A stretch of DNA of 63,833 bases, from contig OZ024742.1 in the NCBI GenBank assembly GCA_964016885.1, positions 108,934,001 through 108,997,833 on the forward strand, written 5' to 3'. Shown one piece after another: positions 25,791-63,729 of this stretch (its first letter is position 1; each line of letters opens with the position of its first letter). Origin of the DNA: Eledone cirrhosa (Eukaryota). Made by a program: the position numbers and the translations under genes. The notes under the pieces were generated by a model. That model was not told where the DNA came from, did no database searches, and was given only the letters and a program-made list of their open reading frames with translations.

Positions 25791-27620
25791 TATTATTATT
25801 TTTTTCATTTATCTTGCTTTATGTTCATACAAGTTATCACCAAGTCATAACCAGTGACCTCAAGAGACAAGGTCTGCCATGTTCAAGAAAAAACACATAC
25901 ATGTATCTTTATGTGTTTACACTTGTGATATACTGATATTAACAGAATCTTCCTTAGTATATGGGCAGTTCCCTAGTACTATCTTTTGTATTTCTTCTAT
26001 ACGCGGGTTTCCTGGGATTTGGGATAAGTAATCATTTGATCCCTTAGGTATTATTCCCAGAGCGCCTACAACCACTACTATTGTTTTAGTTTTCAACTTC
26101 CACATTTTTCCAATCTCTATTTCCAGATCTTTATATTTGCTCAATTTTTCAAATGTTTTTATAGATACATTCTTGTCTATTGGAACGGACATATCAATTA
26201 GCAGGCATACCCTCTTTTTAAAGTCCTTCAGTATTATATCAGGTCTATTTGCATCTATTTTTCGGTCTGTTTGGATGCTAAAGTTCCACAAGATTGAGAT
26301 GTGATCTTTTTCAAGTATGGGAGGTGGTTGATGCTCCCACCAATTCTTTTGATGGAGCAGGTCAAAATGCTTACACATTATCCAATGTATGTATTGTGCA
26401 GCTCTGTCATGCTTGTTTAGGTATTCAGTTGGAGCTATAGGACTGCACATTGAAATTATATGATCAATGGTCTCTGGTTGTTTTTTACATACACAGCATA
26501 ATGGGTTGCATCCATTTTTTATTATGTTGGCTTGGTAATTTTTTGTTGGCAGACACTGATCTTGTGCTGATATAATCAGTCCTTCAGTCTCCGATTTCAG
26601 TCCAGAGGATGCCAACCACTGATGGGTTAAAGTTTTGTCAACATCAGGATTGTTAGTTCTTTCTGGGTATTTTCCATACAGAGGCTTTTCTTGCCATTTC
26701 TTAGCCAGTTTCTGTAGCAGTTCTTTCTTTGCAGTTACTTTTACCTGCTTTGCTTTTTCTGTATTTTTCATATCAGCAGTAAAGGGAACTTCTGAAATTT
26801 GTAGTTCATTATTGTTTCTATGTGCATCTTTTGTAATGGAGTATGATCTTTTGCTGCTTTCATGTTTCAAAACGAGTTTGATCATCCAATCATGTGATTC
26901 CCTTAGATATGTAGATAATTCAATTGTTGCAGTTTTCAAAGAAATATCTAACTCGATTAATCCACATCCTCCTTCTTTCCTTGGGAGATATATTCTATCT
27001 ATCTGATATAGGATGATGCATTCTCTGCATGGTTAAGAATTTTCTCATTTTTGCATCGAGTTTGCAATTCTCTGTGCTTAACCGGTTGATGACATTGAAA
27101 CTGTAGGTTACTACTGCTATGGCAAGTGTGTTTATGGCATCGATCCTATTCCTTGCATTCAATTCCGTTCTTAAGATTGCTCTTACTCTGCTGTAACATT
27201 CCTTCCTTATCCTTCCCCTCATTATCGAGTGTTTGATTCTGTCTCCTTCACAAACACCTAGAAACTTATAAGTTTCTTCTTGATCAAGTTCTCTTATCAC
27301 ATTCTCCCAATCAAGATTAATGTCTGAACTTTTCAACAGCTCTCCTCTGATGAATGTGGCTTTGGCTCATTTATCTAGTCCAAACTCCATTTTAATATCA
27401 TCACTAAACTGCTTCACAGTGGATAATAGCCCTTGCAGTTCATTACTTTTTGCAAATAGCTTCAGGTCATCCATGTAGAACAAGTGATTAATGGTTTTGT
27501 CATAGACTTTATATCCATGTTTTGTTTCATTGAGCATTTTACTTAATGGTATAAGTGTGATGCAGAATAAAAGTGGCGATAAAGAATCACCCTGAATATT
27601 TCCACAATTAATATCAACTT
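25790..27620 (-). mobile_element. R4/Dong-like RLE non-LTR retrotransposon, better preserved copy
   Basis: RT motifs QGDSLSPLLFC and FYMDDLKLF (27340-27600); the 3' end runs into (TAA)n at 25789-25800. Confidence 0.9.
25917..26939 (-). pseudogene. C-terminal zinc knuckle plus restriction-like endonuclease (RLE) of the R4/Dong element
   Basis: 340-aa ORF with CxxC..ETIDHIISMC, KHD, RPDIILKD, LIDMSVP and KLSKYKDL motifs; frameshifted from the upstream RT. Confidence 0.85.
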
Positions 27621-31775: not shown

Positions 31776-34643
31776 CAGTGAGCGACAACTGGCCCCCATC
31801 TTCGACGACTTTGAGATCTACGCATCTCTCTGTCAGCCGGGAGGTGGGGGTGGGGTTGCCGTTTTGCTGCGGAAACACCTGGACCTCGTAACATAGATGG
31901 TACATCTGGATCCGGAGGGTTGACTGGTGGTCCTAGACGTTGACGGTAGTGAAGGTGGAGCCTTCAGGCTGGTGGCCACATATGCCCCATCCAGGACACC
32001 GCGGCCAGACTTCTTCAAACGTCTAGAGACTTTTCTGGGAACGTCCCGCTCCCTGCTGTTAGTGGGGGACTGGAATGGAATCCTAGATGCACGTTGAGAC
32101 TATGTGGGAGCATGTCCCGATAGAAGGGGGTGTCACAGCCTCAAACAGTTAATCGGCCGATTTGACCTGGCTGATAGATATCGACTAGATTTTCCGACTG
32201 TGCCACTGTGGACGTGGACTAATCGCAGCGGAACATCTAGATCGTACCTAGATAGGGTTCTAGTTAGAAAGAAGGATAGGGACATGTTAAGCTGTCCACA
32301 AATGTTCATGGTTGCCTATTCAGATCACAAATTAGTGACCTGCTTAGTCAACCTTGACAAAACCCATAGTCAAGGACCCGGCTACTGGAAACTGAACTTG
32401 TCGTTACTGACAGGCAAAGCCTACAGTAGACGGATTAGCACTTTAGTTAAGCAGCACTTGACGGTGGCCATTGTCAACAACAGATGGTGGTACTCTCTCA
32501 AGAGGGCAGTTAGATTAGACTCGATAGGTTTTAGTAAAGAATTAGTGTTAGATAGAAATAAGACCGAAAAGGAACTGGTAGATAAAGTAGAAGAGGCACT
32601 TATGAGTGGCAATGTAGCCAGCGTGCTAGCGACGAGAACGGCCTTGGACCAGTTCTTCGACGCAAAGCATGAAGGCTGCGTTGTCAGAAGCAAAATACAT
32701 GCTCTGGGAAATGAGGGAGCCAAAGCTGTTAGCTGGGCCCGAGTGATGGAGGCGAAAAGTGGCAACAAGTCCACGATTCAGTCTTTGAAGGACCAAAACG
32801 GACGCGTGATACGTGAGTCGAAGCAGATGTGTGCAGCCTTTCAGAGGCACTTTGCTCAACTGTTCGGGCGGGGCGCCGCGCCGGGAGAGGCTATGGATTT
32901 TGGTCCATACCTCGACGGCCTACCGCGACTCTCGGACAGCGAGGCAAAGTTCTGCGAAAAGCCGATTTCAGCCACTGAGATAGAGGACGCGCTGAGCCAA
33001 TGTGGCAAACGCAAATCTCCAGGTCTCGACGGTCTACCTTATGAATTTTACGTAGCAATGCCGGACTTGTTCTCCGGTCTCCTGGAAGCGGTCTACTGCA
33101 ACTGGCAGCAGAACGGGAGAATTCCCAGTCATGTGACCAAGGGCGTAATTACGTTAGTCAGGAAGGACGAGAACAAGGGGGATGACATAGGCAACTTCCG
33201 GCCCATAACTCTGCTCAGCACAGAGTTACAGATTTTGGCCAAGGTGTTGGCAAAGAGGCTGGCGCTTGTCGTCGAAAACCTGGTGGGAGAAGCGCAGACA
33301 TGCGCAATCCCGACCAGGTCCATACATGACAACCTCCACCTCATGCGATACATCATAGAGAGGGTAGGGTGTAAACCCGGCTTCGGTGGGGCCCTGATCA
33401 ACTTGGATTAGTCTAAGGCTTTCGATAGGGTTGAGTATCGTTACCTGGATGTGGTGCTCGAGGCGGCAGGCTTCGGTCCCGTGTTCAGGGGCTTGATTGC
33501 TGCAATGCACAACAGCAACATCTGCTCAAGGGTCAAGGTGAACGGCTACCTCTCGGAGCTGTTCCATATCACGCTATCCATCCCACAGGGATGCCCTCTC
33601 TCCTCCCTTCTGTACGTACTGACTCTCGAGCCACTATTGCGGAAGTTGGAGCTATTGCAGGGCATCCCTTTGGAACCGGGACTGCGAAAAGTGACATGAC
33701 AGTAATGGTGTCGAGCACCTCGCAAATCGGAGGAGATCGGCACCTTACTGGAGGAATACGAAAGGTTCACAGGAGCGAAGCTGAACTGGGACAAATCCGT
33801 CGGTTTGCAACTCGGAACGTGGAGAGGCAAACCGATGCCTTCCGATGACGTCGTCGGACGCTGGACGGAAGGACCGGTAAAGCTGCTCGGGGTCTGGTTT
33901 GGTCCTGTCCTCCAGGTAGAGAAGAACTGGAACGAGGTGACGGCCAAGATGTTTGCGCTCACCCAGAAGTGGGCCGAGTGCAAACTATCCTTGAAAGGTC
34001 GAGCGGAGGTGGCAAACACTTTTATAGCGTCCGTCATCTACTACCGCTTGACCGTTGTGGCTTGTCCAGCCAAAACGCTCACCAATTCGTGAGGCGAGCC
34101 TTCCCACGACTCGTCTCGCTGACCGAGCTGCAGATCTGGGTCAAGCAAAGACCGAGGAAAATGGGCGACTGGCATATCAAGCTCTACAGACGCGAGCGCC
34201 CGGGTAGGGACCCTTCGAAAAAGACCTGTCCGAGATGCGTGCGCGACGAGGAAACCGTCGCGCGTGCATTTGTACACTGCCCGGGCGTTACCGACCTGTG
34301 GGGCTATGTAGAATGACTATTGTCGTGGGTGGGACCAATCTAGTTGACCACCGAGTCCATTATCATGATCAAACCGCCACCCTCCTTCAAAAACGAGAGA
34401 GAGGCGGTTTTCCTATGTGTTATGGCTATGGTGAAAGAGGTTATATGGTGGACGAGGTTAAAAGAGCTGAGGTCAGACACCTTTCTCTCCAGCGAGCAAC
34501 TGATTCGTTTTTTCAAATATCATTTTGGAAGAAGAATCAGAATGGAGAGAGAGGTGCTGTACCCCAGCAAATTTTATAAAAGGTGGGCGAATGTGGCAAA
34601 GTTGGCCCGAGTGGTTGGGCCTTCTCTCTATATAAGCCTGTAG
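31776..34643 (+). pseudogene. L1/Tx1 ORF2 (APE plus RT), disrupted
   Basis: VGDWNGILD, SYLDRVLV, SDHKLV, GPGYWKLN, KSPGLDGLPYEFY, NFRPITLL, LD*SKAFDRV and QGCPLS; has stops and frameshifts, and no YADD motif is visible. Confidence 0.85.
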
Positions 34644-37869: not shown

Positions 37870-40148
37870 CTACAATGCGAGGACCAAAAACGTGAGGTGT
37901 TCAGGATTGCTTGGCAATGTGTCAAGGAAACTGTGATATTGTTGGGGAGAAGTGTGTCCTTAACGATGATGGTGTACTTGCCATCACTGATGCTGATAAG
38001 AAGGTAGCTTGGAAGTGTCACTATGAAAGGCTACTAAATGAGGAGAATAAATGGGAGAAAGACAGTCTCCCCCACATCGATCCAATAGAGAGACCAGCAG
38101 TGTTAGTCGAAGGTAGTATAATAAGTAAGGCAATGAAAGATATGACGACGAGTAAGGCGGCTGGGCCTTCGGAAATAGTTGCTGAAATGCTGAAAGCTTC
38201 TGGAACGGTGGGACACACCATGGTCACCCGGATAGTAAACCAAGTCATACAGAATGGGGTTGTTCCGAAGGACTGGCATAGCAGCATCATCATTAACTGC
38301 TACAAGGGTAAAGGAGATGCCCTAGATAGGAGTAACTATAGAGGCATTAAATTAATCGACCAGGTCATGAAGGTCACAGAAAAAGTAATAGCGCAACTAA
38401 TCAGAGAGAGAATTGATCTAGATGAAATGCAGTTCGGGTTTGTGTCAGGTAAAAGTACCACAGATGCTCTTTTCATTGTACGACAACTACAGGAGAAGTA
38501 CCTAGCTAAAAGTAAACCCCTATACTTAGCTTTTGTCGACTTGGAGAAAGCCTTCGACAGAGTCCCCCATTCCATTATCTGGTGGGCTCTTAGAAAACTA
38601 GGTGTTGATGAATGGCTTGTGAGAGCTACACAAGCCATGTATAAAGAAAAAGTCAGCAAGGTTAGAATTAACAACGAATATAGTGAAGAGTTTAGCGTAA
38701 AAGTTGGTGTTCATCAGGGCTCCGTTCTTAGCCCCCTACTATTTATTATTGCCCTTCAGGCTATAACAGTGGAGTTCAAGACCGGCTGCCCATGGGAACT
38801 CCTATACGCAGATGATCTAACGCTCATAGCTGAATCAATGGCCGAACTAGAGAAGAAATTCCAAACATGGAAGCATGGCCTAGAATCAAAAGGCCTTAAA
38901 ATTAACCTGTCTAAGACTAAAGTTCTAGTTTGTAGGAAGGAAAATAGGGCACCGGTCCCATCCGGGAAATGGCCATGCTCAGTGTGTAGGAAAGGAGTAG
39001 GGAGAAACTCCATTTTATGTCCCAAATGCAAAGTATGGGTGCATAAAAGATGTAGTGGGATCACAGGTAAGCTAACTAAGAACATAGATTTTATATGTGG
39101 CCGGTGCTCTGGTGCAATAAGTAGCAGCAAGTGCCCACAGAATACTAGCTCATTCCATTGCACAGAGGGTTCTATAGAAATAGTGGACAGCTTCTGTTAC
39201 CTGGGTGACAAAATCAGCAGTGGTGGAGGGTGCTCTGAAAGTACAGTAGCTAGAGTCAGAACTGAATGGAAAAAGTTCAGAGAGCTTATACCACTATTAG
39301 CCGCTAAAGGGTCCTACTAAAAATGAAAGGCAGGCTGTATGATGCCTGCATATGAACAGCAATGTTACATGGCAGTGAGATCTGGGTATTGTGTAGAGGA
39401 TATACGCAGACTGGAGAGGAACGAAGCTTGCATGCTCCGCTGGATGTGTAATAGTAATATACATGAACGGCAAAGCTTAAACGAACTAAGGGAAAAATTA
39501 GAAATAAGGGGGATCAGATGTTGTCTACTCGAGAGAAGACTACGTTGATATAGTCACGTGATGCGCATGAAAGACGACAGCTGTATAAAAAAATGCAGGG
39601 CAATAAAAATAGACGGTAGCCATGGAGTAGGCAGACCCAGAAAAACCTGGGACGACTTGATAAATTCCGACCTCACACACTTACACCTCTCCAAGACAAT
39701 GTCACTGGACCGAGATCTTTGGCACTACACAGGAATACAGAAGACCCGCCTTACCTAAGTACAAAGTGAAACCTACTACAGTCAGTAGGCACCTCTAACA
39801 AAATACATCCCCGTTCGACTACCCCCACCCCATCCACACCACCCCTTTCAATGTAAAGTTATGTTGGTACCACAACATCCAGTCCGAAACAAATGAGGTC
39901 CTGTAGGTGTCACGACAAAAAAACACACAGTCTACGCTGTAATGTGGCCGTGTAGGTAACACGGTAAAAACCTCCCAGTCCACACTGTAAACGTGGTTGG
40001 TGTTAGGAAGGGCATCCAGCCATAGAAAACCCGCCAGTCAGTCCTATGCGAGCAAGACAACCACTCTTGCCTCAAGTGGGAAAACTCCCGTCCAAACCCA
40101 TGCAAGCGTGGAAGATGGACGTTAAACGATGATGATAATGATGATGAT
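37870..40148 (+). mobile_element. RTE LINE, 5'-truncated, relatively young, inserted in (TA)n
   Basis: 469-aa RT ORF, C-terminus RLR..HVMR...GRPRKTW, 3' UTR stem-loop motif, GTTAAAC(GAT)n tail and TA flanks. Confidence 0.95.
37911..39320 (+). pseudogene. RTE reverse transcriptase with a PHD-like zinc finger
   Basis: NYRGIKL, QFGF, FVDLEKAFDRVP, GVHQGSVLSPLLF, LYADDL and FCYLG, plus a C4HC3 motif; frameshift after LAAKG. Confidence 0.9.
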
Positions 40149-40575: not shown

Positions 40576-40884
40576 TATATATATATATGTGTGTGTGTGT
40601 GTATATATTAGCAATATCACTAACATAGCGTGGTTTCATATGCAAAATTTCATATAAAATTTAGCTTATTCTTGTTCCAGTTATGAGTGAGAAAATGTCA
40701 TCAATGATGGCTAAAAACCCAGAAACAGCTGTCTGGCAATCTCACCAGCTACTGAGTTAACTGTGACTTGATCACAGCTTAAAATATTAATTGCAAGAAC
40801 CTTGTATGTTTATTATATATAAACATATCGTATATGCTTTCATATACATCCTATTATATATAAATATTATAAACATAAATATAT

Positions 40885-41980
40885 ACTAGCTCTTTCAATT
40901 GCGCAGAGGGTTCTATAGAAATAGTGGACAGCTTCCGTTACCTGGGTGACAAAATCAGCAGTGGGGGAGGGTGCTCCGAAAGTACAGGATGGAAAAAGTT
41001 CAGAGAGCTTATACCACTATTAGCCGCTAAAGGGTTCTCCCTAAAAATGAAAGGCAGGTTGTATGATGCCTGCATACGAACAGCAATGTTGCATGGCAGT
41101 GAGACCTGGGCATTGTGTGCAGAGGATATACGCAGACTAGAGAGGAACGAAGCTTGCATGCTCCGCTGGATGTGTAATAGTAATATACGTGAACGGCAAA
41201 GCATAAACAAACTAAGGAAAAAATTAAAAATAAGAGGGATCAGATGTTGTTTACTCGAGAGAAGGCTACGTTGGTATGGTCACGTGATGCGCATGAAAGA
41301 CGACAGCTGTATAACAAAGTGCAGGGCAATAAAGATAGATGGTAGCCACGGAGTAGGCAGACCCAGAGAAACCTGGGACGAGCTGATAAATTCCGACCTC
41401 ACACACTTACACCTCTCCAAGACAATGTCACTGGACCGAGACCTTTGGCGGTACTCAGTAATAGAGAAGACCCGCCTTACCTAAATACAAAGTAAAACCT
41501 ACTACAGTCAGTAGGCATCTCTAACAAAATACAACCCCCGTCCCACCACCCCCACCCCATCCACACCGCCCCGTTCAATGTAAAGTTATGTTGGTGCCAC
41601 AACATCCAGGCCGAAACAAATGAGATCGTGTAGGTGTCACGACAAAAAACACACAGTCCACGCTGTAATGTGGCCGTGTAGGCAACACGTTAAAAACCTC
41701 CCAGTCCCACACTGTAAATGTGGTTGGTGTTAGGAAGGGCATCCAGCTGTAGAAAACCCGCCAGACAGTCCATGCTGTAATGTGGCCGTGTAGGCAACAC
41801 GGTAAAAACCTCCCAGCCCCACACTGTAAATGTGGTTGGTGTTAGGAAGGGCATCCAGCTGTAGAAAACCCGCCAGACAGTCCTATGCGAGCAAGACAAC
41901 CACTCTTGCCTCAAGTGGGAAAACTCACGTCCAAACCCATGCAAGCGTGGAACATGGACGTTAAACGATGATGATGATGA
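40885..41980 (+). mobile_element. RTE LINE 3' fragment
   Basis: 186-aa ORF DSFRYLG...LHGSETW...RRLRWYGHVMR...GRPRETW, with a duplicated 3' UTR block. Confidence 0.9.
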
Positions 41981-45731: not shown

Positions 45732-45790
45732 TTTATCTGATGAAAGCATACCAATGTTGTCTTGGTTGCCCTTGAAATATATATAATAAA
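45732..45790 (+). ncRNA. minimal type I hammerhead ribozyme motif
   Basis: TTTAT-CTGATGA-AAGCA..CCAA/TTGG..TGCCCTT-GAAA-TATATA-TA-ATAAA; the downstream flank has an inverted copy at 45139-45197. Confidence 0.65.
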
Positions 45791-45927
45791 ATAAATATGG
45801 TTTTATAAATACAGTTTCCATTTATTTAATATCATTGAATATTTACTCCAGTAACTTGTTGAGTGCTCTAAATCAGTTATAAATATTTATGTTTGTCGGA
45901 CTTCCAACAAATTAAATACAACTTCTA

Positions 45928-53261: not shown

Positions 53262-53669
53262 CAGCTGACCATGCCTTGCTCATACAGGAACTGATTTTGG
53301 CTTGATTTCTACAGCTGGATGCCCTTCCTAACACCAACCTCATTTACAGTGAGTGCTGGGTGCTTTTTCCGTGGCGCCTACATGTCCACTTTACAGTGTG
53401 GGCTGGGTGCTTTTTTGTCGTTGTTTGCATTTGGGGCAGAGAATGGAGTTCCTACCTACACCATTCCTACATACTGAGCAAGGCCATTTCCCTGAGGGGA
53501 TCTGGGTTCTGTTTTCTCGCCTACTTACAAGGACCTTAGTCTTTGTCATGTTGACTTTGAGACCTTTTCTTTCTAGTCCCTGCTTCCAAGTTTGGAATTT
53601 CTTCTCTAGTTCTACCATAGATTCAGCTATAAGTGCGAGGTCATCAGCATACAGGAGTTCCCATGGGCA
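53262..53669 (-). mobile_element. RTE fragment with an internal deletion (RT joined to 3' UTR)
   Basis: PWELLYADDL...KWPCSVCRNGVGRNSILCPKCK is fused directly to 3' UTR repeats. Confidence 0.8.
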
Positions 53670-56880
<3,211 letters not shown>

Positions 56881-57116
56881 ATTTAGAAACACACAGATAC
56901 ATGCGGACGCACACATATATACATGAATGCATCCGCACCCAACTGTGAGTTAAGGGTGCCAACTTCACCGATGTTGCTCAATGAATGACTGGGACAGACC
57001 AATTCAGTTTGAACTAGACTGAACCAGTATCAGAGTTAAAAATACATTATGAAGAGAGAAGAAACATTTAGATATAATTAGTAATAAAATGTATCATACC
57101 TAAACTGTTCCTAAAT

Positions 57117-57204
57117 TCCTCGACTACGTAGTTTCGTGGCATAAACAAAAACAATATATCAAAGATATAGAGTCCTTGCGAGGTCTGCCGACTTATCAAG
57201 AGGA
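57117..57204 (-). ncRNA. type I hammerhead ribozyme, U3:A8 core variant (copy 1)
   Basis: Reverse complement of 60900-60987. Confidence 0.8.
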
Positions 57205-57707
57205 TACCTCATTTTACTAGTCTCAAGAACGCGTCTACACGACGTGAGAAAGAATCCCAAAAGGCGGAGGGGGAGATAGTCACGCGATATAACGGTCGAG
57301 AAACAGAGCTAAGCCTCTTATAACCACGAAGAAAATACCACGGAGGCGGAGGGGGTATTCATATCGAGGCCGTAGAAGAGGTAGTGAAGAAGGCGAGAAG
57401 TATGAGTAATGGAAGCTTTCCAGTTGTCCCCACACCTCAAAGATTGCTCGACCAGAGGGAGTTATTAATATATTTAGAAACACACAGATACATGCGGACG
57501 CACACATATATACATGAATGCATCCGCACCCAACTGTGAGTTAAGGGTGCCAACTTCACCGATGTTGCTCAATGAATGACTGGGACAGACCAATTCAGTT
57601 TGAACTAGACTGAACCAGTATCAGAGTTAAAAATACATTATGAAGAGAGAAGAAACATTTAGATATAATTAGTAATAAAATGTATCATACCTAAACTGTT
57701 CCTAAAT

Positions 57708-57795
57708 TCCTCGACTACGTAGTTTCGTGGCATAAACAAAAACAATATATCAAAGATATAGAGTCCTTGCGAGGTCTGCCGACTTATCAAGAGGA
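57708..57795 (-). ncRNA. type I hammerhead ribozyme, U3:A8 core variant (copy 2)
   Basis: Reverse complement of 60900-60987. Confidence 0.8.
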
Positions 57796-58298
57796 TACCT
57801 CATTTTACTAGTCTCAAGAACGCGTCTACACGACGTGAGAAAGAATCCCAAAAGGCGGAGGGGGAGATAGTCACGCGATATAACGGTCGAGAAACAGAGC
57901 TAAGCCTCTTATAACCACGAAGAAAATACCACGGAGGCGGAGGGGGTATTCATATCGAGGCCGTAGAAGAGGTAGTGAAGAAGGCGAGAAGTATGAGTAA
58001 TGGAAGCTTTCCAGTTGTCCCCACACCTCAAAGATTGCTCGACCAGAGGGAGTTATTAATATATTTAGAAACACACAGATACATGCGGACGCACACATAT
58101 ATACATGAATGCATCCGCACCCAACTGTGAGTTAAGGGTGCCAACTTCACCGATGTTGCTCAATGAATGACTGGGACAGACCAATTCAGTTTGAACTAGA
58201 CTGAACCAGTATCAGAGTTAAAAATACATTATGAAGAGAGAAGAAACATTTAGATATAATTAGTAATAAAATGTATCATACCTAAACTGTTCCTAAAT

Positions 58299-58386
58299 TC
58301 CTCGACTACGTAGTTTCGTGGCATAAACAAAAACAATATATCAAAGATATAGAGTCCTTGCGAGGTCTGCCGACTTATCAAGAGGA
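58299..58386 (-). ncRNA. type I hammerhead ribozyme, U3:A8 core variant (copy 3)
   Basis: Reverse complement of 60900-60987. Confidence 0.8.
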
Positions 58387-58889
58387 TACCTCATTTTACT
58401 AGTCTCAAGAACGCGTCTACACGACGTGAGAAAGAATCCCAAAAGGCGGAGGGGGAGATAGTCACGCGATATAACGGTCGAGAAACAGAGCTAAGCCTCT
58501 TATAACCACGAAGAAAATACCACGGAGGCGGAGGGGGTATTCATATCGAGGCCGTAGAAGAGGTAGTGAAGAAGGCGAGAAGTATGAGTAATGGAAGCTT
58601 TCCAGTTGTCCCCACACCTCAAAGATTGCTCGACCAGAGGGAGTTATTAATATATTTAGAAACACACAGATACATGCGGACGCACACATATATACATGAA
58701 TGCATCCGCACCCAACTGTGAGTTAAGGGTGCCAACTTCACCGATGTTGCTCAATGAATGACTGGGACAGACCAATTCAGTTTGAACTAGACTGAACCAG
58801 TATCAGAGTTAAAAATACATTATGAAGAGAGAAGAAACATTTAGATATAATTAGTAATAAAATGTATCATACCTAAACTGTTCCTAAAT

Positions 58890-58977
58890 TCCTCGACTAC
58901 GTAGTTTCGTGGCATAAACAAAAACAATATATCAAAGATATAGAGTCCTTGCGAGGTCTGCCGACTTATCAAGAGGA
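58890..58977 (-). ncRNA. type I hammerhead ribozyme, U3:A8 core variant (copy 4)
   Basis: Reverse complement of 60900-60987. Confidence 0.8.
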
Positions 58978-59480
58978 TACCTCATTTTACTAGTCTCAAG
59001 AACGCGTCTACACGACGTGAGAAAGAATCCCAAAAGGCGGAGGGGGAGATAGTCACGCGATATAACGGTCGAGAAACAGAGCTAAGCCTCTTATAACCAC
59101 GAAGAAAATACCACGGAGGCGGAGGGGGTATTCATATCGAGGCCGTAGAAGAGGTAGTGAAGAAGGCGAGAAGTATGAGTAATGGAAGCTTTCCAGTTGT
59201 CCCCACACCTCAAAGATTGCTCGACCAGAGGGAGTTATTAATATATTTAGAAACACACAGATACATGCGGACGCACACATATATACATGAATGCATCCGC
59301 ACCCAACTGTGAGTTAAGGGTGCCAACTTCACCGATGTTGCTCAATGAATGACTGGGACAGACCAATTCAGTTTGAACTAGACTGAACCAGTATCAGAGT
59401 TAAAAATACATTATGAAGAGAGAAGAAACATTTAGATATAATTAGTAATAAAATGTATCATACCTAAACTGTTCCTAAAT

Positions 59481-59568
59481 TCCTCGACTACGTAGTTTCG
59501 TGGCATAAACAAAAACAATATATCAAAGATATAGAGTCCTTGCGAGGTCTGCCGACTTATCAAGAGGA
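59481..59568 (-). ncRNA. type I hammerhead ribozyme, U3:A8 core variant (copy 5)
   Basis: Reverse complement of 60900-60987. Confidence 0.8.
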
Positions 59569-60071
59569 TACCTCATTTTACTAGTCTCAAGAACGCGTCT
59601 ACACGACGTGAGAAAGAATCCCAAAAGGCGGAGGGGGAGATAGTCACGCGATATAACGGTCGAGAAACAGAGCTAAGCCTCTTATAACCACGAAGAAAAT
59701 ACCACGGAGGCGGAGGGGGTATTCATATCGAGGCCGTAGAAGAGGTAGTGAAGAAGGCGAGAAGTATGAGTAATGGAAGCTTTCCAGTTGTCCCCACACC
59801 TCAAAGATTGCTCGACCAGAGGGAGTTATTAATATATTTAGAAACACACAGATACATGCGGACGCACACATATATACATGAATGCATCCGCACCCAACTG
59901 TGAGTTAAGGGTGCCAACTTCACCGATGTTGCTCAATGAATGACTGGGACAGACCAATTCAGTTTGAACTAGACTGAACCAGTATCAGAGTTAAAAATAC
60001 ATTATGAAGAGAGAAGAAACATTTAGATATAATTAGTAATAAAATGTATCATACCTAAACTGTTCCTAAAT

Positions 60072-60159
60072 TCCTCGACTACGTAGTTTCGTGGCATAAA
60101 CAAAAACAATATATCAAAGATATAGAGTCCTTGCGAGGTCTGCCGACTTATCAAGAGGA
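60072..60159 (-). ncRNA. type I hammerhead ribozyme, U3:A8 core variant (copy 6)
   Basis: Reverse complement of 60900-60987. Confidence 0.8.
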
Positions 60160-60899
60160 TACCTCATTTTACTAGTCTCAAGAACGCGTCTACACGACGT
60201 GAGAAAGAATCCCAAAAGGCGGAGGGGGAGATAGTCACGCGATATAACGGTCGAGAAACAGAGCTAAGCCTCTTATAACCACGAAGAAAATACCACGGAG
60301 GCGGAGGGGGTATTCATATCGAGGCCGTAGAAGAGGTAGTGAAGAAGGCGAGAAGTATGAGTAATGGAAGCTTTCGAGGAATTTAGGAACAGTTTAGGTA
60401 TGATACATTTTAGGTATGATACATTTTATTACTAATTATATCTAAATGTTTCTTCTCTCTTCATAATGTATTTTTAACTCTGATACTGGTTCAGTCTAGT
60501 TCAAACTGAATTGGTCTGTCCCAGTCATTCATTGAGCAACATCGGTGAAGTTGGCACCCTTAACTCACAGTTGGGTGCGGATGCATTCATGTATATATGT
60601 GTGCGTCCGCATGTATCTGTGTGTTTCTAAATATATTAATAACTCCCTCTGGTCGAGCAATCTTTGAGGTGTGGGGACAACTGGAAAGCTTCCATTACTC
60701 ATACTTCTCGCCTTCTTCACTACCTCTTCTACGGCCTCGATATGAATACCCCCTCCGCCTCCGTGGTATTTTCTTCGTGGTTATAAGAGGCTTAGCTCTG
60801 TTTCTCGACCGTTATATCGCGTGACTATCTCCCCCTCCGCCTTTTGGGATTCTTTCTCACGTCGTGTAGACGCGTTCTTGAGACTAGTAAAATGAGGTA

Positions 60900-60987
60900 T
60901 CCTCTTGATAAGTCGGCAGACCTCGCAAGGACTCTATATCTTTGATATATTGTTTTTGTTTATGCCACGAAACTACGTAGTCGAGGA
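60900..60987 (+). ncRNA. type I hammerhead ribozyme, U3:A8 core variant (copy 7)
   Basis: Stem I TCCTC/GAGGA; core TTGATAA (60905-60911); stem II GTcGGCA/TGCCAC; GAAA (60969-60972); stem III ACTA-CG-TAGT; GTC with predicted cleavage after 60982. Confidence 0.8.
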
Positions 60988-61490
60988 ATTTAGGAACAGT
61001 TTAGGTATGATACATTTTATTACTAATTATATCTAAATGTTTCTTCTCTCTTCATAATGTATTTTTAACTCTGATACTGGTTCAGTCTAGTTCAAACTGA
61101 ATTGGTCTGTCCCAGTCATTCATTGAGCAACATCGGTGAAGTTGGCACCCTTAACTCACAGTTGGGTGCGGATGCATTCATGTATATATGTGTGCGTCCG
61201 CATGTATCTGTGTGTTTCTAAATATATTAATAACTCCCTCTGGTCGAGCAATCTTTGAGGTGTGGGGACAACTGGAAAGCTTCCATTACTCATACTTCTC
61301 GCCTTCTTCACTACCTCTTCTACGGCCTCGATATGAATACCCCCTCCGCCTCCGTGGTATTTTCTTCGTGGTTATAAGAGGCTTAGCTCTGTTTCTCGAC
61401 CGTTATATCGCGTGACTATCTCCCCCTCCGCCTTTTGGGATTCTTTCTCACGTCGTGTAGACGCGTTCTTGAGACTAGTAAAATGAGGTA

Positions 61491-61578
61491 TCCTCTTGAT
61501 AAGTCGGCAGACCTCGCAAGGACTCTATATCTTTGATATATTGTTTTTGTTTATGCCACGAAACTACGTAGTCGAGGA
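61491..61578 (+). ncRNA. type I hammerhead ribozyme, U3:A8 core variant (copy 8)
   Basis: Same sequence as 60900-60987; predicted cleavage after 61573. Confidence 0.8.
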
Positions 61579-61650
61579 ATTTAGGAACAGTTTAGGTATG
61601 ATACATTTTATTACTAATTATATCTAAATGTTTCTTCTCTCTTCATAATG

Positions 61651-62396
<746 letters not shown>

Positions 62397-63018: not shown

Positions 63019-63729
63019 CATCATCATCATCATCATCATCATCGTTTAACATCCGTGTTCCATGCTTGCATGGGTTTGGACGGGAGTTTTCCCACTTGAG
63101 GCAAGAGTGGTTGTCTTGCTCGCATAGGACTGTCTGGCGGGTTTTCTACAGTTGGATGCCCTTCCTAACACCAACCACATTTACAGTGTGGGGCTGGGAG
63201 GTTGTTACCGTGTTGCCTACACGGCCACATTACAGCGTGGACTGTCTGGCGGGTTTTCTACAGCTGGATGCCCTTCCTAACACCAACCGCATTTACAGTG
63301 AGGGACTGGGAGGTTTTTACCGTGTTGCCTACACGGTCACATTACAGCGTGGACTGTGTTTTTTTTTGTCGTGACACCTACACGATCTCATTTGTTTCGG
63401 CCTGGATTTTGTGGCACCAACATAACTTTACATTGAAAGGGGCGGGGTGGTGGGACGGGGGTGTATTTTGTTAGAGATGCCTACTGCTGTAGTAGGTTTT
63501 ACTTTGTATTTAGGTAAGGCGGGTCTTCTCTATTACTGAGTACCGCCAAAGCTCTCGGTCCAGTGACATTGTCTTGGAGAGGTGTAAGTGTGTGAGGTCG
63601 GAATTTATCAGCTTGTCCCAGGTTTTTCTGGGTCTGCCTACTCCGTGGCTACCGTCTATCTTTATTGCCCTGCACTTTGCTATACAGCTGTCGTCTTTCA
63701 TGCACATCACGTGACCATACCAACGTAGC
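63019..63729 (-). mobile_element. RTE LINE 3' fragment within (TA)n
   Basis: Near-identical reverse complement of 41265-41980. Confidence 0.9.

Follow-up and report, generated by a model that had tools for sequence, protein, structure and literature searches.

Anatomy of the locus

The window, i.e. the whole stretch of 63,833 nucleotides of Eledone cirrhosa DNA analysed here, contains two inverted arms of a 591-bp unit, which lie head-to-head inside (TA)n and amount to 5.9 and 2.2 units (Table 1). The 591-bp period is exact, with lag-591 identity running over 56877-59784 and 60409-61062, and alignment of the units of both arms shows no mismatch in a total repeat content of about 8.1 units. 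The original prediction, eight identical 591-bp units, was right as to period, identity and amount, but the units do not form one head-to-tail array. Each arm meets the microsatellite with the 3' end of its RNA sense: arm 1 at 56877 with a point termed site A (245 nt past the ribozyme cleavage site), and arm 2 at 61653 with site B (80 nt past it). In the monomer listed in Table 1, site B is at 61062 and site A at 61227. The inversion junction falls here on the cleavage site, although across the family such a coincidence is no commoner than chance. The insertion is very young.

Table 1. Features of the retrozyme locus (positions in the window).
Feature	Position	Strand	Remarks
Left (TA)n tract, insertion target	53669..56876	.	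TRF 53669-56882
Arm 1, 5.92 identical 591-bp units	56877..60375	-	Ribozyme sense on minus strand
Six hammerhead copies on arm 1	57117..60166	-	C17 at 60077, 59486, 58895, 58304, 57713, 57122
Head-to-head inversion junction	60374..60375	.	2-nt TC common to both arms
Arm 2, 2.2 units	60374..61653	+	Ribozyme sense on plus strand
16-bp local duplication near arm 2 5' end	60389..60428	+	Probable RT slip
Type I hammerhead, arm 2, first copy	60893..60987	+	Predicted cleavage after C60982
One 591-nt monomer, between successive cleavage sites	60983..61573	+	
Second hammerhead copy on arm 2	61484..61578	+	Predicted cleavage after 61573
Right (TA)n tract	61654..62395	.	TRF 61651-62395

The array had also been described as seated in (TA)n, rich in CpG and devoid of a credible protein, and all of this is borne out. 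TRF finds (TA)n tracts on both sides; the CpG observed/expected ratio is 0.97 in the array vs 0.41 in positions 1-52000 of the window, where 5 of 87 tiles of 591 bp are as high; and the longest stop-free frame in the unit is 86 codons, none of the frames checked staying open round the 591-nt circle. The GC content of the unit is 0.42. LTR structure is absent, the TA tracts enclosing pure unit repeats, and a tRNA scan of the window found none.

The hammerhead ribozyme

As predicted, each full unit bears one type I hammerhead. The descriptor finds eight in all, six and two in succession on the respective arms and confined to one strand of the unit, and matches none of 3000 dinucleotide shuffles of it. 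In the copy at 60893-60987, helix I is formed by 60900-60904 with 60983-60987, the core (60905-60911) is of the U3-A8 type, helix II is extended, G12 lies at 60969, and helix III is a 10-nt palindrome. The first six nucleotides (60893-60898) pair with the internal loop of helix II, a conserved extra pairing that is mostly invariant and so weakly tested. The core, initially regarded as atypical, is the U3-A8 variant already known from Schistosoma Penelope-like element (PLE) hammerheads (PMC4209133).

Rfam gives nothing at gathering score in the window and, at E<=10 over 60700-61300, eight weak miRNA-like hairpin matches and no hammerhead family, so the ribozyme call depends on the descriptor and on covariation. 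Among 33 related sequences, partly picked by pattern, 13 of the 37 hammerhead pairs are changed on both sides, a number reached in 0 of 500 shuffles and compared with 1-5 in slid controls; in alignment A1 the ribozyme columns fixed by the search patterns are invariant by construction. The pairing covaries across subfamilies down to ~70% identity, which include three palindromic versions of helix III. Helix III variants that lack the common first base number 148; in a hand count of the first 100, perfect palindromes make up 65, those pairing via G-U 23 and those with a mismatch 12.

For a self-duplex of helix III the computed energy is -12.9 kcal/mol. In the monomer, the hammerhead is not the fold of lowest energy (z -0.5), and when constrained it lies 1.1 kcal/mol above the MFE. 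As a circle, the unit folds with z -6.9 on the ribozyme strand vs -1.9 on the antisense strand, and an old 589-nt copy with -4.3 vs -0.6; the predicted circle sequesters helix I. For Xenopus retrozyme dimers, in vitro cleavage has been reported in just one of nine (bioRxiv 10.64898/2026.07.22.740005).

The family in the genome

The exact ribozyme 22-mer has 7,531 copies in the genome, and the control has none. The insertions are dispersed, vary in unit number and are of several ages, with subfamilies down to ~70% identity. Dispersed arrays of variable copy number with TA flanks were thus correctly foreseen; the freely permuted ends also expected are not found, the 3' ends being at two sites. 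In a tally of 76 insertions with 121 arms, 118 of the 121 RNA-sense 3' ends are at site A (58) or site B (60), and variation is confined to the 5' ends, which are spread over the unit. (TA)4 lies within 20 nt of the end in 116 of the 121 arms.

Two arms, inverted, are present in 46 of the 76 insertions, and these combine the two sites almost without exception: 43 are A+B, one is A+A and two have one other end (p=5e-12 for A+B vs same-site pairing). At 41 loci of the ~70%-identical subfamilies, exactly A and B are found on opposite strands at 12, extra ends at three, A/A or B/B alone at none, and one end or none by motif at 26. The cleavage junction is crossed by 111 of the 121 arms, and 73 are longer than one unit. 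A junction at the cleavage site was considered as the mark of a linear cleaved template and fails family-wide, since 5' ends within 5 nt of that site number 2 of 121, with 2.0 expected.

Each insertion carries one haplotype. A minor allele is common to both arms in 109 of 119 cases (10 disagree), and 28 locus-private changes occur in every unit of their own insertion; for example, five such changes are spread across all 7-8 units of L095. Changes common in this way to all units and both arms require a one-monomer bottleneck at some step.

Words of the unit were also found in 20 sequencing runs with 17 organism labels from 16 studies, of which four runs were examined. No RNA run is listed among the 20, which speaks neither for nor against expression. 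X4 yielded one 621-nt head-to-tail contig at depth 7.8, and X16 three contigs, all partial, 2-4 deep and belonging to two subfamilies; for organism F, no read matched among raw DNA reads sampled at about 1 in 100 from X22. Horizontal spread was considered, and no transfer is claimed because, for the four of 20 runs examined, low-level carry-over of a high-copy repeat is the simplest explanation.

Nature of the element and proposed mechanism

At the DNA level, the element forms multi-unit insertions in (TA)n with two fixed 3' ends, one per arm, and random 5' ends, and has a conserved hammerhead and an RNA-strand-specific fold. The unit has no ORF, as opposed to the RT plus GIY-YIG ORF that defines an autonomous PLE. 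With non-autonomous PLEs it shares an inverted 5'-truncated copy, partial tandems, two fixed internal 3' ends and a microsatellite target that a resident PLE also uses; with retrozymes, tandem non-coding hammerhead units, compensatory pairing and dispersed multicopy occurrence. The element is therefore probably a non-LTR, non-autonomous retrozyme that uses the RT/GIY-YIG protein of a PLE. These results support the original prediction of a very recent retrozyme insertion made by repeated reverse transcription of a 591-nt RNA, with a PLE as the likely mobiliser. Its further suggestion, an integrated exogenous viroid-like RNA, finds no support, because the lineage has resident subfamilies down to ~70% identity. 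A viroid or viroid-like replicon was likewise rejected: the hammerhead is on one strand, the antisense fold is weak, and there are thousands of genomic copies of several ages.

A PLE protein is known to cut and extend both DNA strands, its RT starting within the RNA at two positions between which the genomic tail lies (PMC11167929). In the mechanism proposed here, multi-unit loci would be transcribed, adjacent hammerheads would pair via the palindromic helix III and release 591-nt monomers, and these would be ligated into circles with helix I sequestered. The PLE protein would then cut a (TA)n tract on both strands and begin reverse transcription inside the RNA, one DNA end using site A and the other site B of a single molecule; the two cDNAs would copy round the template for 0.1-7 units before their ends are joined via 0-5 nt microhomology. 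Two-ended priming, rounds of copying and end joining would give the head-to-head 5.9 + 2.2 units seen here, and single-armed insertions would result when just one end is extended. That some PLE is the mobiliser is very likely; a circular template is likely, with somewhat less assurance.

The same element and machinery could instead use an uncleaved multi-unit read-through transcript, the hammerhead acting late or standing idle and a circle being unneeded. Hammerhead cleavage is dispensable in the anole PLE, since hammerhead mutants showed normal insertion in vitro and the template was mainly unprocessed RNA (PMC11167929); arrays of 6-7 units, possible sources of such a transcript, exist at the window locus and at L050; and alleles are mixed among the units of a few arms (L037, L043, L145). 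Nevertheless, a read-through template is rather improbable: the 28 changes found in all units and both arms would still need the one-monomer bottleneck, the median arm is merely 756 nt yet arms reach 4100 nt, and the retention of a palindromic helix III through three versions implies selection on dimeric cleavage.

It is far less probable that short insertions were expanded later at the DNA level by unequal crossover or gene conversion, the inversion being a subsequent rearrangement. A local-amplification, satellite-birth model has been proposed for retrozyme arrays (bioRxiv 10.64898/2026.07.22.740005), and recent DNA duplication likewise yields identical units, but it does not account for the many inverted insertions under the A+B rule, for 120 single-unit changes that are absent from neighbouring units, or for a strand bias seen in inherited changes and not in single-unit ones. 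An assembly artefact (fold-back or collapsed reads) is the least credible explanation, for although 4.8 kb without a mismatch lie between very long TA tracts and the unit count is known from the assembly alone, dozens of loci of differing ages have this anatomy too, each with junctions of its own, and run X1 has contigs with the tandem joint and with ends that pass into TA at exactly 61062 and 61227, evidence that is not independent of the individual since X1 may be the source sample.

The candidate PLE partner

The retrozyme proposed above would need a helper, and for the young PLE family at L122 to be that partner, the most likely one, the chances are about even. The family encodes RT and GIY-YIG domains, and by descriptor it has a U3-A8 hammerhead with a palindromic helix III, whose 22-mer has 13,570 exact genomic copies. 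Its ends lie about +80 and +145 past the cleavage site in 27 of 29 matches, in (TA)n, and are found one per arm in L127, L131 and L170. Among the copies scored, 41 of 49 are 97-99% identical. One copy has an unbroken 775-codon RT-EN frame, which does not open with a start codon; in two copies checked for their upstream frames, these are broken. In L122 and L209 the C-terminal GIY-YIG domain is preceded by a CX2-5CxxC linker, a feature of Neptune/Nematis-type PLEs, which may be their clade. The named PLE relatives, at 53-60% identity, are bivalve or bivalve-associated records.

The unit has no DNA homology to the L122 element or to the other 36 PLE loci, which represent about five families vs 10,596 GIY-YIG candidates in the genome, and tblastn against 20 resident PLE ORFs gave no significant match. 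Similarity of end motifs was rejected as proof of partnership, since scores do not separate the L122 from the L125 family (7 vs 7 for site A, 9 vs 8 for site B). Site A also matches PLE ORFs on their antisense strand over 25 nt (E ~0.03), but the match is taken as chance because it is of low complexity and has no protein-level support.

Substitution bias and possible RNA editing

Read on the RNA strand, inherited changes include 32 A>G vs 16 U>C (p=1.4e-4 for composition), and A>G makes up 32 of 98 inherited changes vs 4 of 120 single-unit changes. A 3' G is enriched at the A>G sites (10/32, p=0.03) and a 5' G is low (3/32, p=0.08). Monomer positions 107, 194, 296, 340 and 490 are among these sites. 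This pattern possibly reflects RNA editing; RT error bias or mis-polarised sites may also be sources. Structural selection alone was rejected as the cause, since it would predict C>U above G>A too, and the counts are 14 and 18. A bolder reading, rather doubtful, holds that a ribozyme-made circle unrelated in sequence to its helper mimics PLE geometry, that one protein dimer primes both DNA ends at two dedicated sites of that circle, and that ADAR edits made at the RNA stage enter the genome and drive its evolution. If true, the insertions would preserve in the genome a dated record of RNA editing in the germ line and of PLE priming that is obligatorily two-ended.

Comparison with known systems

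Like the metazoan non-LTR retrozymes (Cervera and de la Pena 2020, PMC7229834; Li, Clavereau and Pollet 2026, bioRxiv 10.64898/2026.07.22.740005), the element is a non-coding tandem of units of a few hundred bp with one type I hammerhead each, GC below 45%, thousands of copies, a strongly folded RNA (predicted here) and PLEs in the same genome. The monomer was originally thought unusually long; it is above one published range, 170-400 nt (PMC7229834), but within another, 51-972 bp (bioRxiv 10.64898/2026.07.22.740005). Unlike those retrozymes as described, it displays PLE-type anatomy, i.e. inverted arms, two fixed 3' ends and (TA)n; the main text of PMC7229834 has no mention of 'inverted', 'target site' or 'microsatellite'. 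Its hammerhead differs in being U3-A8 with an extended helix II, and helix I is sequestered in its predicted circle, whereas for most circles of metazoan retrozymes a free ribozyme is predicted. No PLE pLTR homology was found among the roughly five PLE families compared, whereas in Xenopus 24 of 57 families have TE matches, almost all of them to PLEs (bioRxiv 10.64898/2026.07.22.740005).

With EN+ PLEs (Craig et al. 2021, PMC8557442; Frangieh et al. 2024, PMC11167929) the element shares partial tandems, a 5'-truncated copy in inverted orientation, a tail that is often confined to one end, a microsatellite bias and two internal RT starts downstream of the hammerhead. It differs in having no ORF, a tail of 165 nt vs 30-40 nt, and up to 7 units per arm; moreover, its one-site-per-arm rule is near-strict, whereas in vitro the start sites of the anole PLE showed no difference between the strands (PMC11167929). 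Features in common with the hammerheads of Schistosoma mansoni Cercyon and other PLEs (PMC4209133) are U3-A8 covariation, a G10.1-C11.1 pair, a palindromic helix III suited to dimers and a short helix I; peculiar to the present one are the 10-nt length of the palindrome, a helix II domain that spans ~57 nt and has a 15-bp hairpin distally, and the conserved 6-bp pairing of the strand lying 5' of helix I with the helix II loop. Non-autonomous Chlamys PLEs such as MRC1 (PMC8557442) also have multicopy insertions in head-to-tail order and depend on PLEs, as is proposed for the present element; they generally share 3' sequence with autonomous families, whereas the unit shares none with the PLEs checked. 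L1 elements offer a further parallel (PMC2837659).

In L1 twin priming, two primers on one RNA give rise to inverted arms with the RNA 3' ends facing outward. The element resembles this in both respects, but its start sites are both fixed and internal, and both arms may exceed one unit.

Significance

Mobilisation of animal retrozymes by PLE proteins via circular RNA is a standing hypothesis, drawn from co-occurrence and pLTR similarity, whose mechanism is open in the literature. The present family leaves a PLE footprint: two fixed starts, one for each end of the DNA, on a single template molecule copied for several rounds. Its fixed end points match those of PLEs resident alongside it, so that the suspected partnership can be tested. 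The 591-nt RNA, two predicted starts, the target sequence and a young candidate enzyme suffice for an in vitro test, which could weigh circular against linear template as well as strand-specific priming. The one-site-per-arm rule sharpens the account of the PLE tail and of inverted copies, and the A>G bias can be used to ask if RNA editing enters heritable retroelement sequence.

Structure of the insertion and its ribozyme

The insertion in the window is a real and very young member of an undescribed retrozyme family; its kind is already known, and its anatomy is a new variation. The original prediction of a tandem array of about eight units was right about their identity, as both arms match the reference unit with no mismatches, but not about a single array: mapping one reference unit along the stretch delimits two arms of opposite orientation, with a 2-nt TC common to both at the junction and a 16-bp duplication close to the start of arm 2. 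A tandem-repeat search of the window placed a long (TA)n tract on either side, in agreement with the predicted TA-microsatellite setting. CpG richness and the lack of a credible protein were also borne out, with an observed/expected CpG ratio of 0.97 in the unit (GC 0.42) vs 0.41 in window 1-52000 (a level reached by 5 of 87 tiles) and, in a scan of the unit, a longest frame of 86 codons. The tandem joint is confirmed by sequencing run X1, which may come from the source sample and also contains ends running into TA at 61062 and 61227.

Features of the window and of the candidate helper family
Feature	Position	Strand	Remarks
Arm 1	56877-60375	minus (ribozyme)	3,499 bp, 5.92 units
Arm 2	60374-61653	plus (ribozyme)	about 2.2 units
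Lone hammerhead-like motif	45736-45793	plus	C3-G8 core, palindromic helix III; predicted cleavage 45785
LINE-type reverse transcriptase fragment	25917-27032	minus	by eye; unrelated to retrozyme
LINE-type reverse transcriptase fragment	32098-33411	plus	by eye; unrelated to retrozyme
LINE-type reverse transcriptase fragment	37896-39320	plus	search over 37896-39317; unrelated to retrozyme
LINE-type reverse transcriptase fragment	40879-41484	plus	by eye; unrelated to retrozyme
Short 112-bp-repeat arrays	41653-41888; 63127-63357		mutually opposite orientation
L122-family PLE	L122:2240-8300; L209:7-2334	minus	young, two 3' ends

A hammerhead in each unit had likewise been predicted. An Rfam search of the window region detected none; a type I descriptor finds eight copies, six in arm 1 (minus strand) and two in arm 2 (plus strand), and has no match in 3000 shuffles of the unit. 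Helix I has 5 bp, U3 and A8 replace C3 and G8 in the core, helix II is lengthened by an internal loop and a 15-bp hairpin, helix III is a perfect 10-nt palindrome (computed self-duplex -12.9 kcal/mol), and cleavage is predicted 3' of GUC; the first base after it (window 60983) is monomer position 1. Both the U3-A8 core and a palindromic helix III that serves dimeric cleavage are known from PLE (Penelope-like element) hammerheads, according to PMC4209133. In 33 copies picked by hand across subfamilies pairing holds in 92% of cells, and 13 of 37 hammerhead pairs have changed on both sides, more than in any shuffle (500 made) or slid control, although alignment columns that the search patterns fixed necessarily show no change. 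Less bias attaches to a genome-wide list of helix III variants without the common first base: a hand count of the first 100 of 148 gives two further perfect palindromes (45 and 20 entries), 23 entries that pair via G-U and 12 with a mismatch. Against the ribozyme, the isolated monomeric motif differs from the computed minimum-energy fold.

The whole-monomer fold is strand-specific (z of -6.9 for the ribozyme strand vs -1.9 for the other), as is that of an old 589-nt copy (-4.3 vs -0.6). In the predicted circle, a hairpin directly before site B ties up the 3' strand of helix I, and a second long hairpin lies ahead of site A; these sites are the fixed RNA-sense 3' end points about 80 and 245 nt after the predicted cleavage site.

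Elsewhere in the window, the lone hammerhead-like motif may mark where another PLE-type element ends; a (TA)n tract lies 144 nt after it, and a similar motif is present in locus L133 at 5516. The 112-bp repeat belongs to a common dispersed repeat.

Copy number and the end rule

A search of the 3.0-Gb genome gave 7,531 occurrences of the ribozyme 22-mer and none of its reversed control. The insertion set comprises 76 insertions, namely the window, 35 loci from the best-scoring matches and 40 loci among the 100 matches listed first for contig C1; the longest insertion was taken per locus, and L032 was left out as a duplicate of L025, apparently one insertion present on two small contigs. Dispersed copies of variable number with TA flanks, as had been expected, are what this set contains, 116 of its 121 arms running into (TA)n. 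The expectation of permuted ends failed, since 58 arms end at site A, 60 at site B and only 3 elsewhere, and it is the 5' ends alone that are scattered over the unit. Two-armed insertions number 46: 43 combine an A with a B end, one has two A ends and two have one other end. The cleavage junction is crossed by 111 of the 121 arms; 73 arms are longer than one unit, 25 of them longer than two. No more 5' ends fall at the cleavage site than chance predicts (2 of 121; expectation 2.0), so the coincidence of the window junction with that site is probably fortuitous.

Both end sites persist in subfamilies of about 70% identity. By motif, 41 subfamily loci comprise 12 whose A and B ends lie on opposite strands, 3 with extra ends, 19 with one end, 7 with none, and no A/A or B/B pair. 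A more distant sister lineage (L164, L182, L185 and L186; 63-66% identity) differs in its end positions, in a helix II that lacks the bulge and in a C-A mismatch within helix I. Insertions of different subfamilies are stacked within one TA tract at L026:2074-4970, and L069 and L151-L153 are exact local duplicates of entire insertions.

Inheritance within insertions

Across 86 loci of at least 93% identity, the two arms agree in their minor allele in 109 of 119 cases. Changes private to one locus occur in every unit of their insertion in 28 instances, vs 120 changes limited to a single unit; this is the pattern expected from repeated copying of one monomer. A few insertions carry mixed alleles, which implies template switching or multi-unit templates at some rate. 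Run X4, which carries another organism label, yielded against window 60690-61280 one 621-nt contig of depth 7.8, self-closing at period 591; it is read as carry-over, and much less probably as a free circle in another species.

When inherited changes are polarised by means of older copies, A>G exceeds U>C on the RNA strand (32 vs 16; p=1.4e-4 given 133 A and 211 U), and A>G makes up 32 of 98 inherited vs 4 of 120 single-unit changes; G>A and C>U are even (18 and 14). An error bias of the reverse transcriptase is one explanation. RNA editing is another, and a rather doubtful one; the neighbouring bases lean towards the ADAR pattern (3'-G, p=0.03; 5'-G, p=0.08). The repeats flanking the element in the window seem to resemble octopod SINE-like repeats, a likeness of relevance only because coleoid cephalopods are known for heavy editing of their RNA.

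Candidate helper elements

Of 10,596 candidate GIY-YIG elements in the genome, 150 were scored. By its sequence features, the family of L122, a PLE locus with RT and GIY-YIG, is a candidate mobilisation partner. Each of the two pLTRs of L122 contains a U3-A8 hammerhead whose helix III is palindromic, the two lying 4,979 nt apart, and the family's ribozyme 22-mer has 13,570 exact occurrences. Among 29 family matches, 10 end at about +80 and 17 reach +145, two of the latter being upstream pLTRs that continue into the leader; L127, L131 and L170 have one end type per arm. The scored copies are 97-99% identical in 41 of 49 cases. One copy has an unbroken RT-EN frame of 775 codons without an initial ATG, and in most scored copies this frame begins after a TGA with no ATG near, so that translation may need frameshift, splicing or readthrough; both L122 and L130 have broken upstream frames. 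No DNA homology was found between the retrozyme unit and the L122 element, and end motifs do not separate this family from a second one (L125, L126, L128 and L132). The second family also has two 3' ends, about 60 nt apart, one of each in the inverted pair L128. A minimal C3-G8 hammerhead-like motif is seen by eye in its 3' UTR and was not picked up by the descriptor.

Proposed mechanism

The unit has every testable feature of non-LTR retrozymes as described in PMC7229834, bioRxiv 10.64898/2026.07.22.740005 and PMC6155905, and the inverted-copy and tail features of PLEs are present in the insertions here. Literature searches, in a collection with few subscription papers and repeat databases, found no description of a cephalopod retrozyme, of such an end rule in retrozymes or of editing fixed in retrozyme copies. 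Insertion anatomy, end rule, haplotype linkage, ribozyme covariation and strand-specific fold are established. In the proposed mechanism, retrozyme RNA would be transcribed, cleaved by hammerheads acting as dimers and circularised; a PLE protein would prime from two ends, the template RNA would be copied in a rolling fashion, and the cDNA ends would be joined via microhomology. This proposal leans on anole PLE results in PMC11167929, where the protein, a predicted dimer, cleaves AT-rich DNA on both strands and extends each, and reverse transcription starts at two internal RNA sites bounding the tail. In vitro, according to the same source, cleavage is dispensable and start-site use does not differ between the DNA strands; the alternative of an uncleaved, linear multi-unit read-through template thus stays alive, and the A+B rule becomes a new prediction. 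With this insertion, direct tests become possible both of the link between retrozymes and PLEs and of whether the template is a circle.
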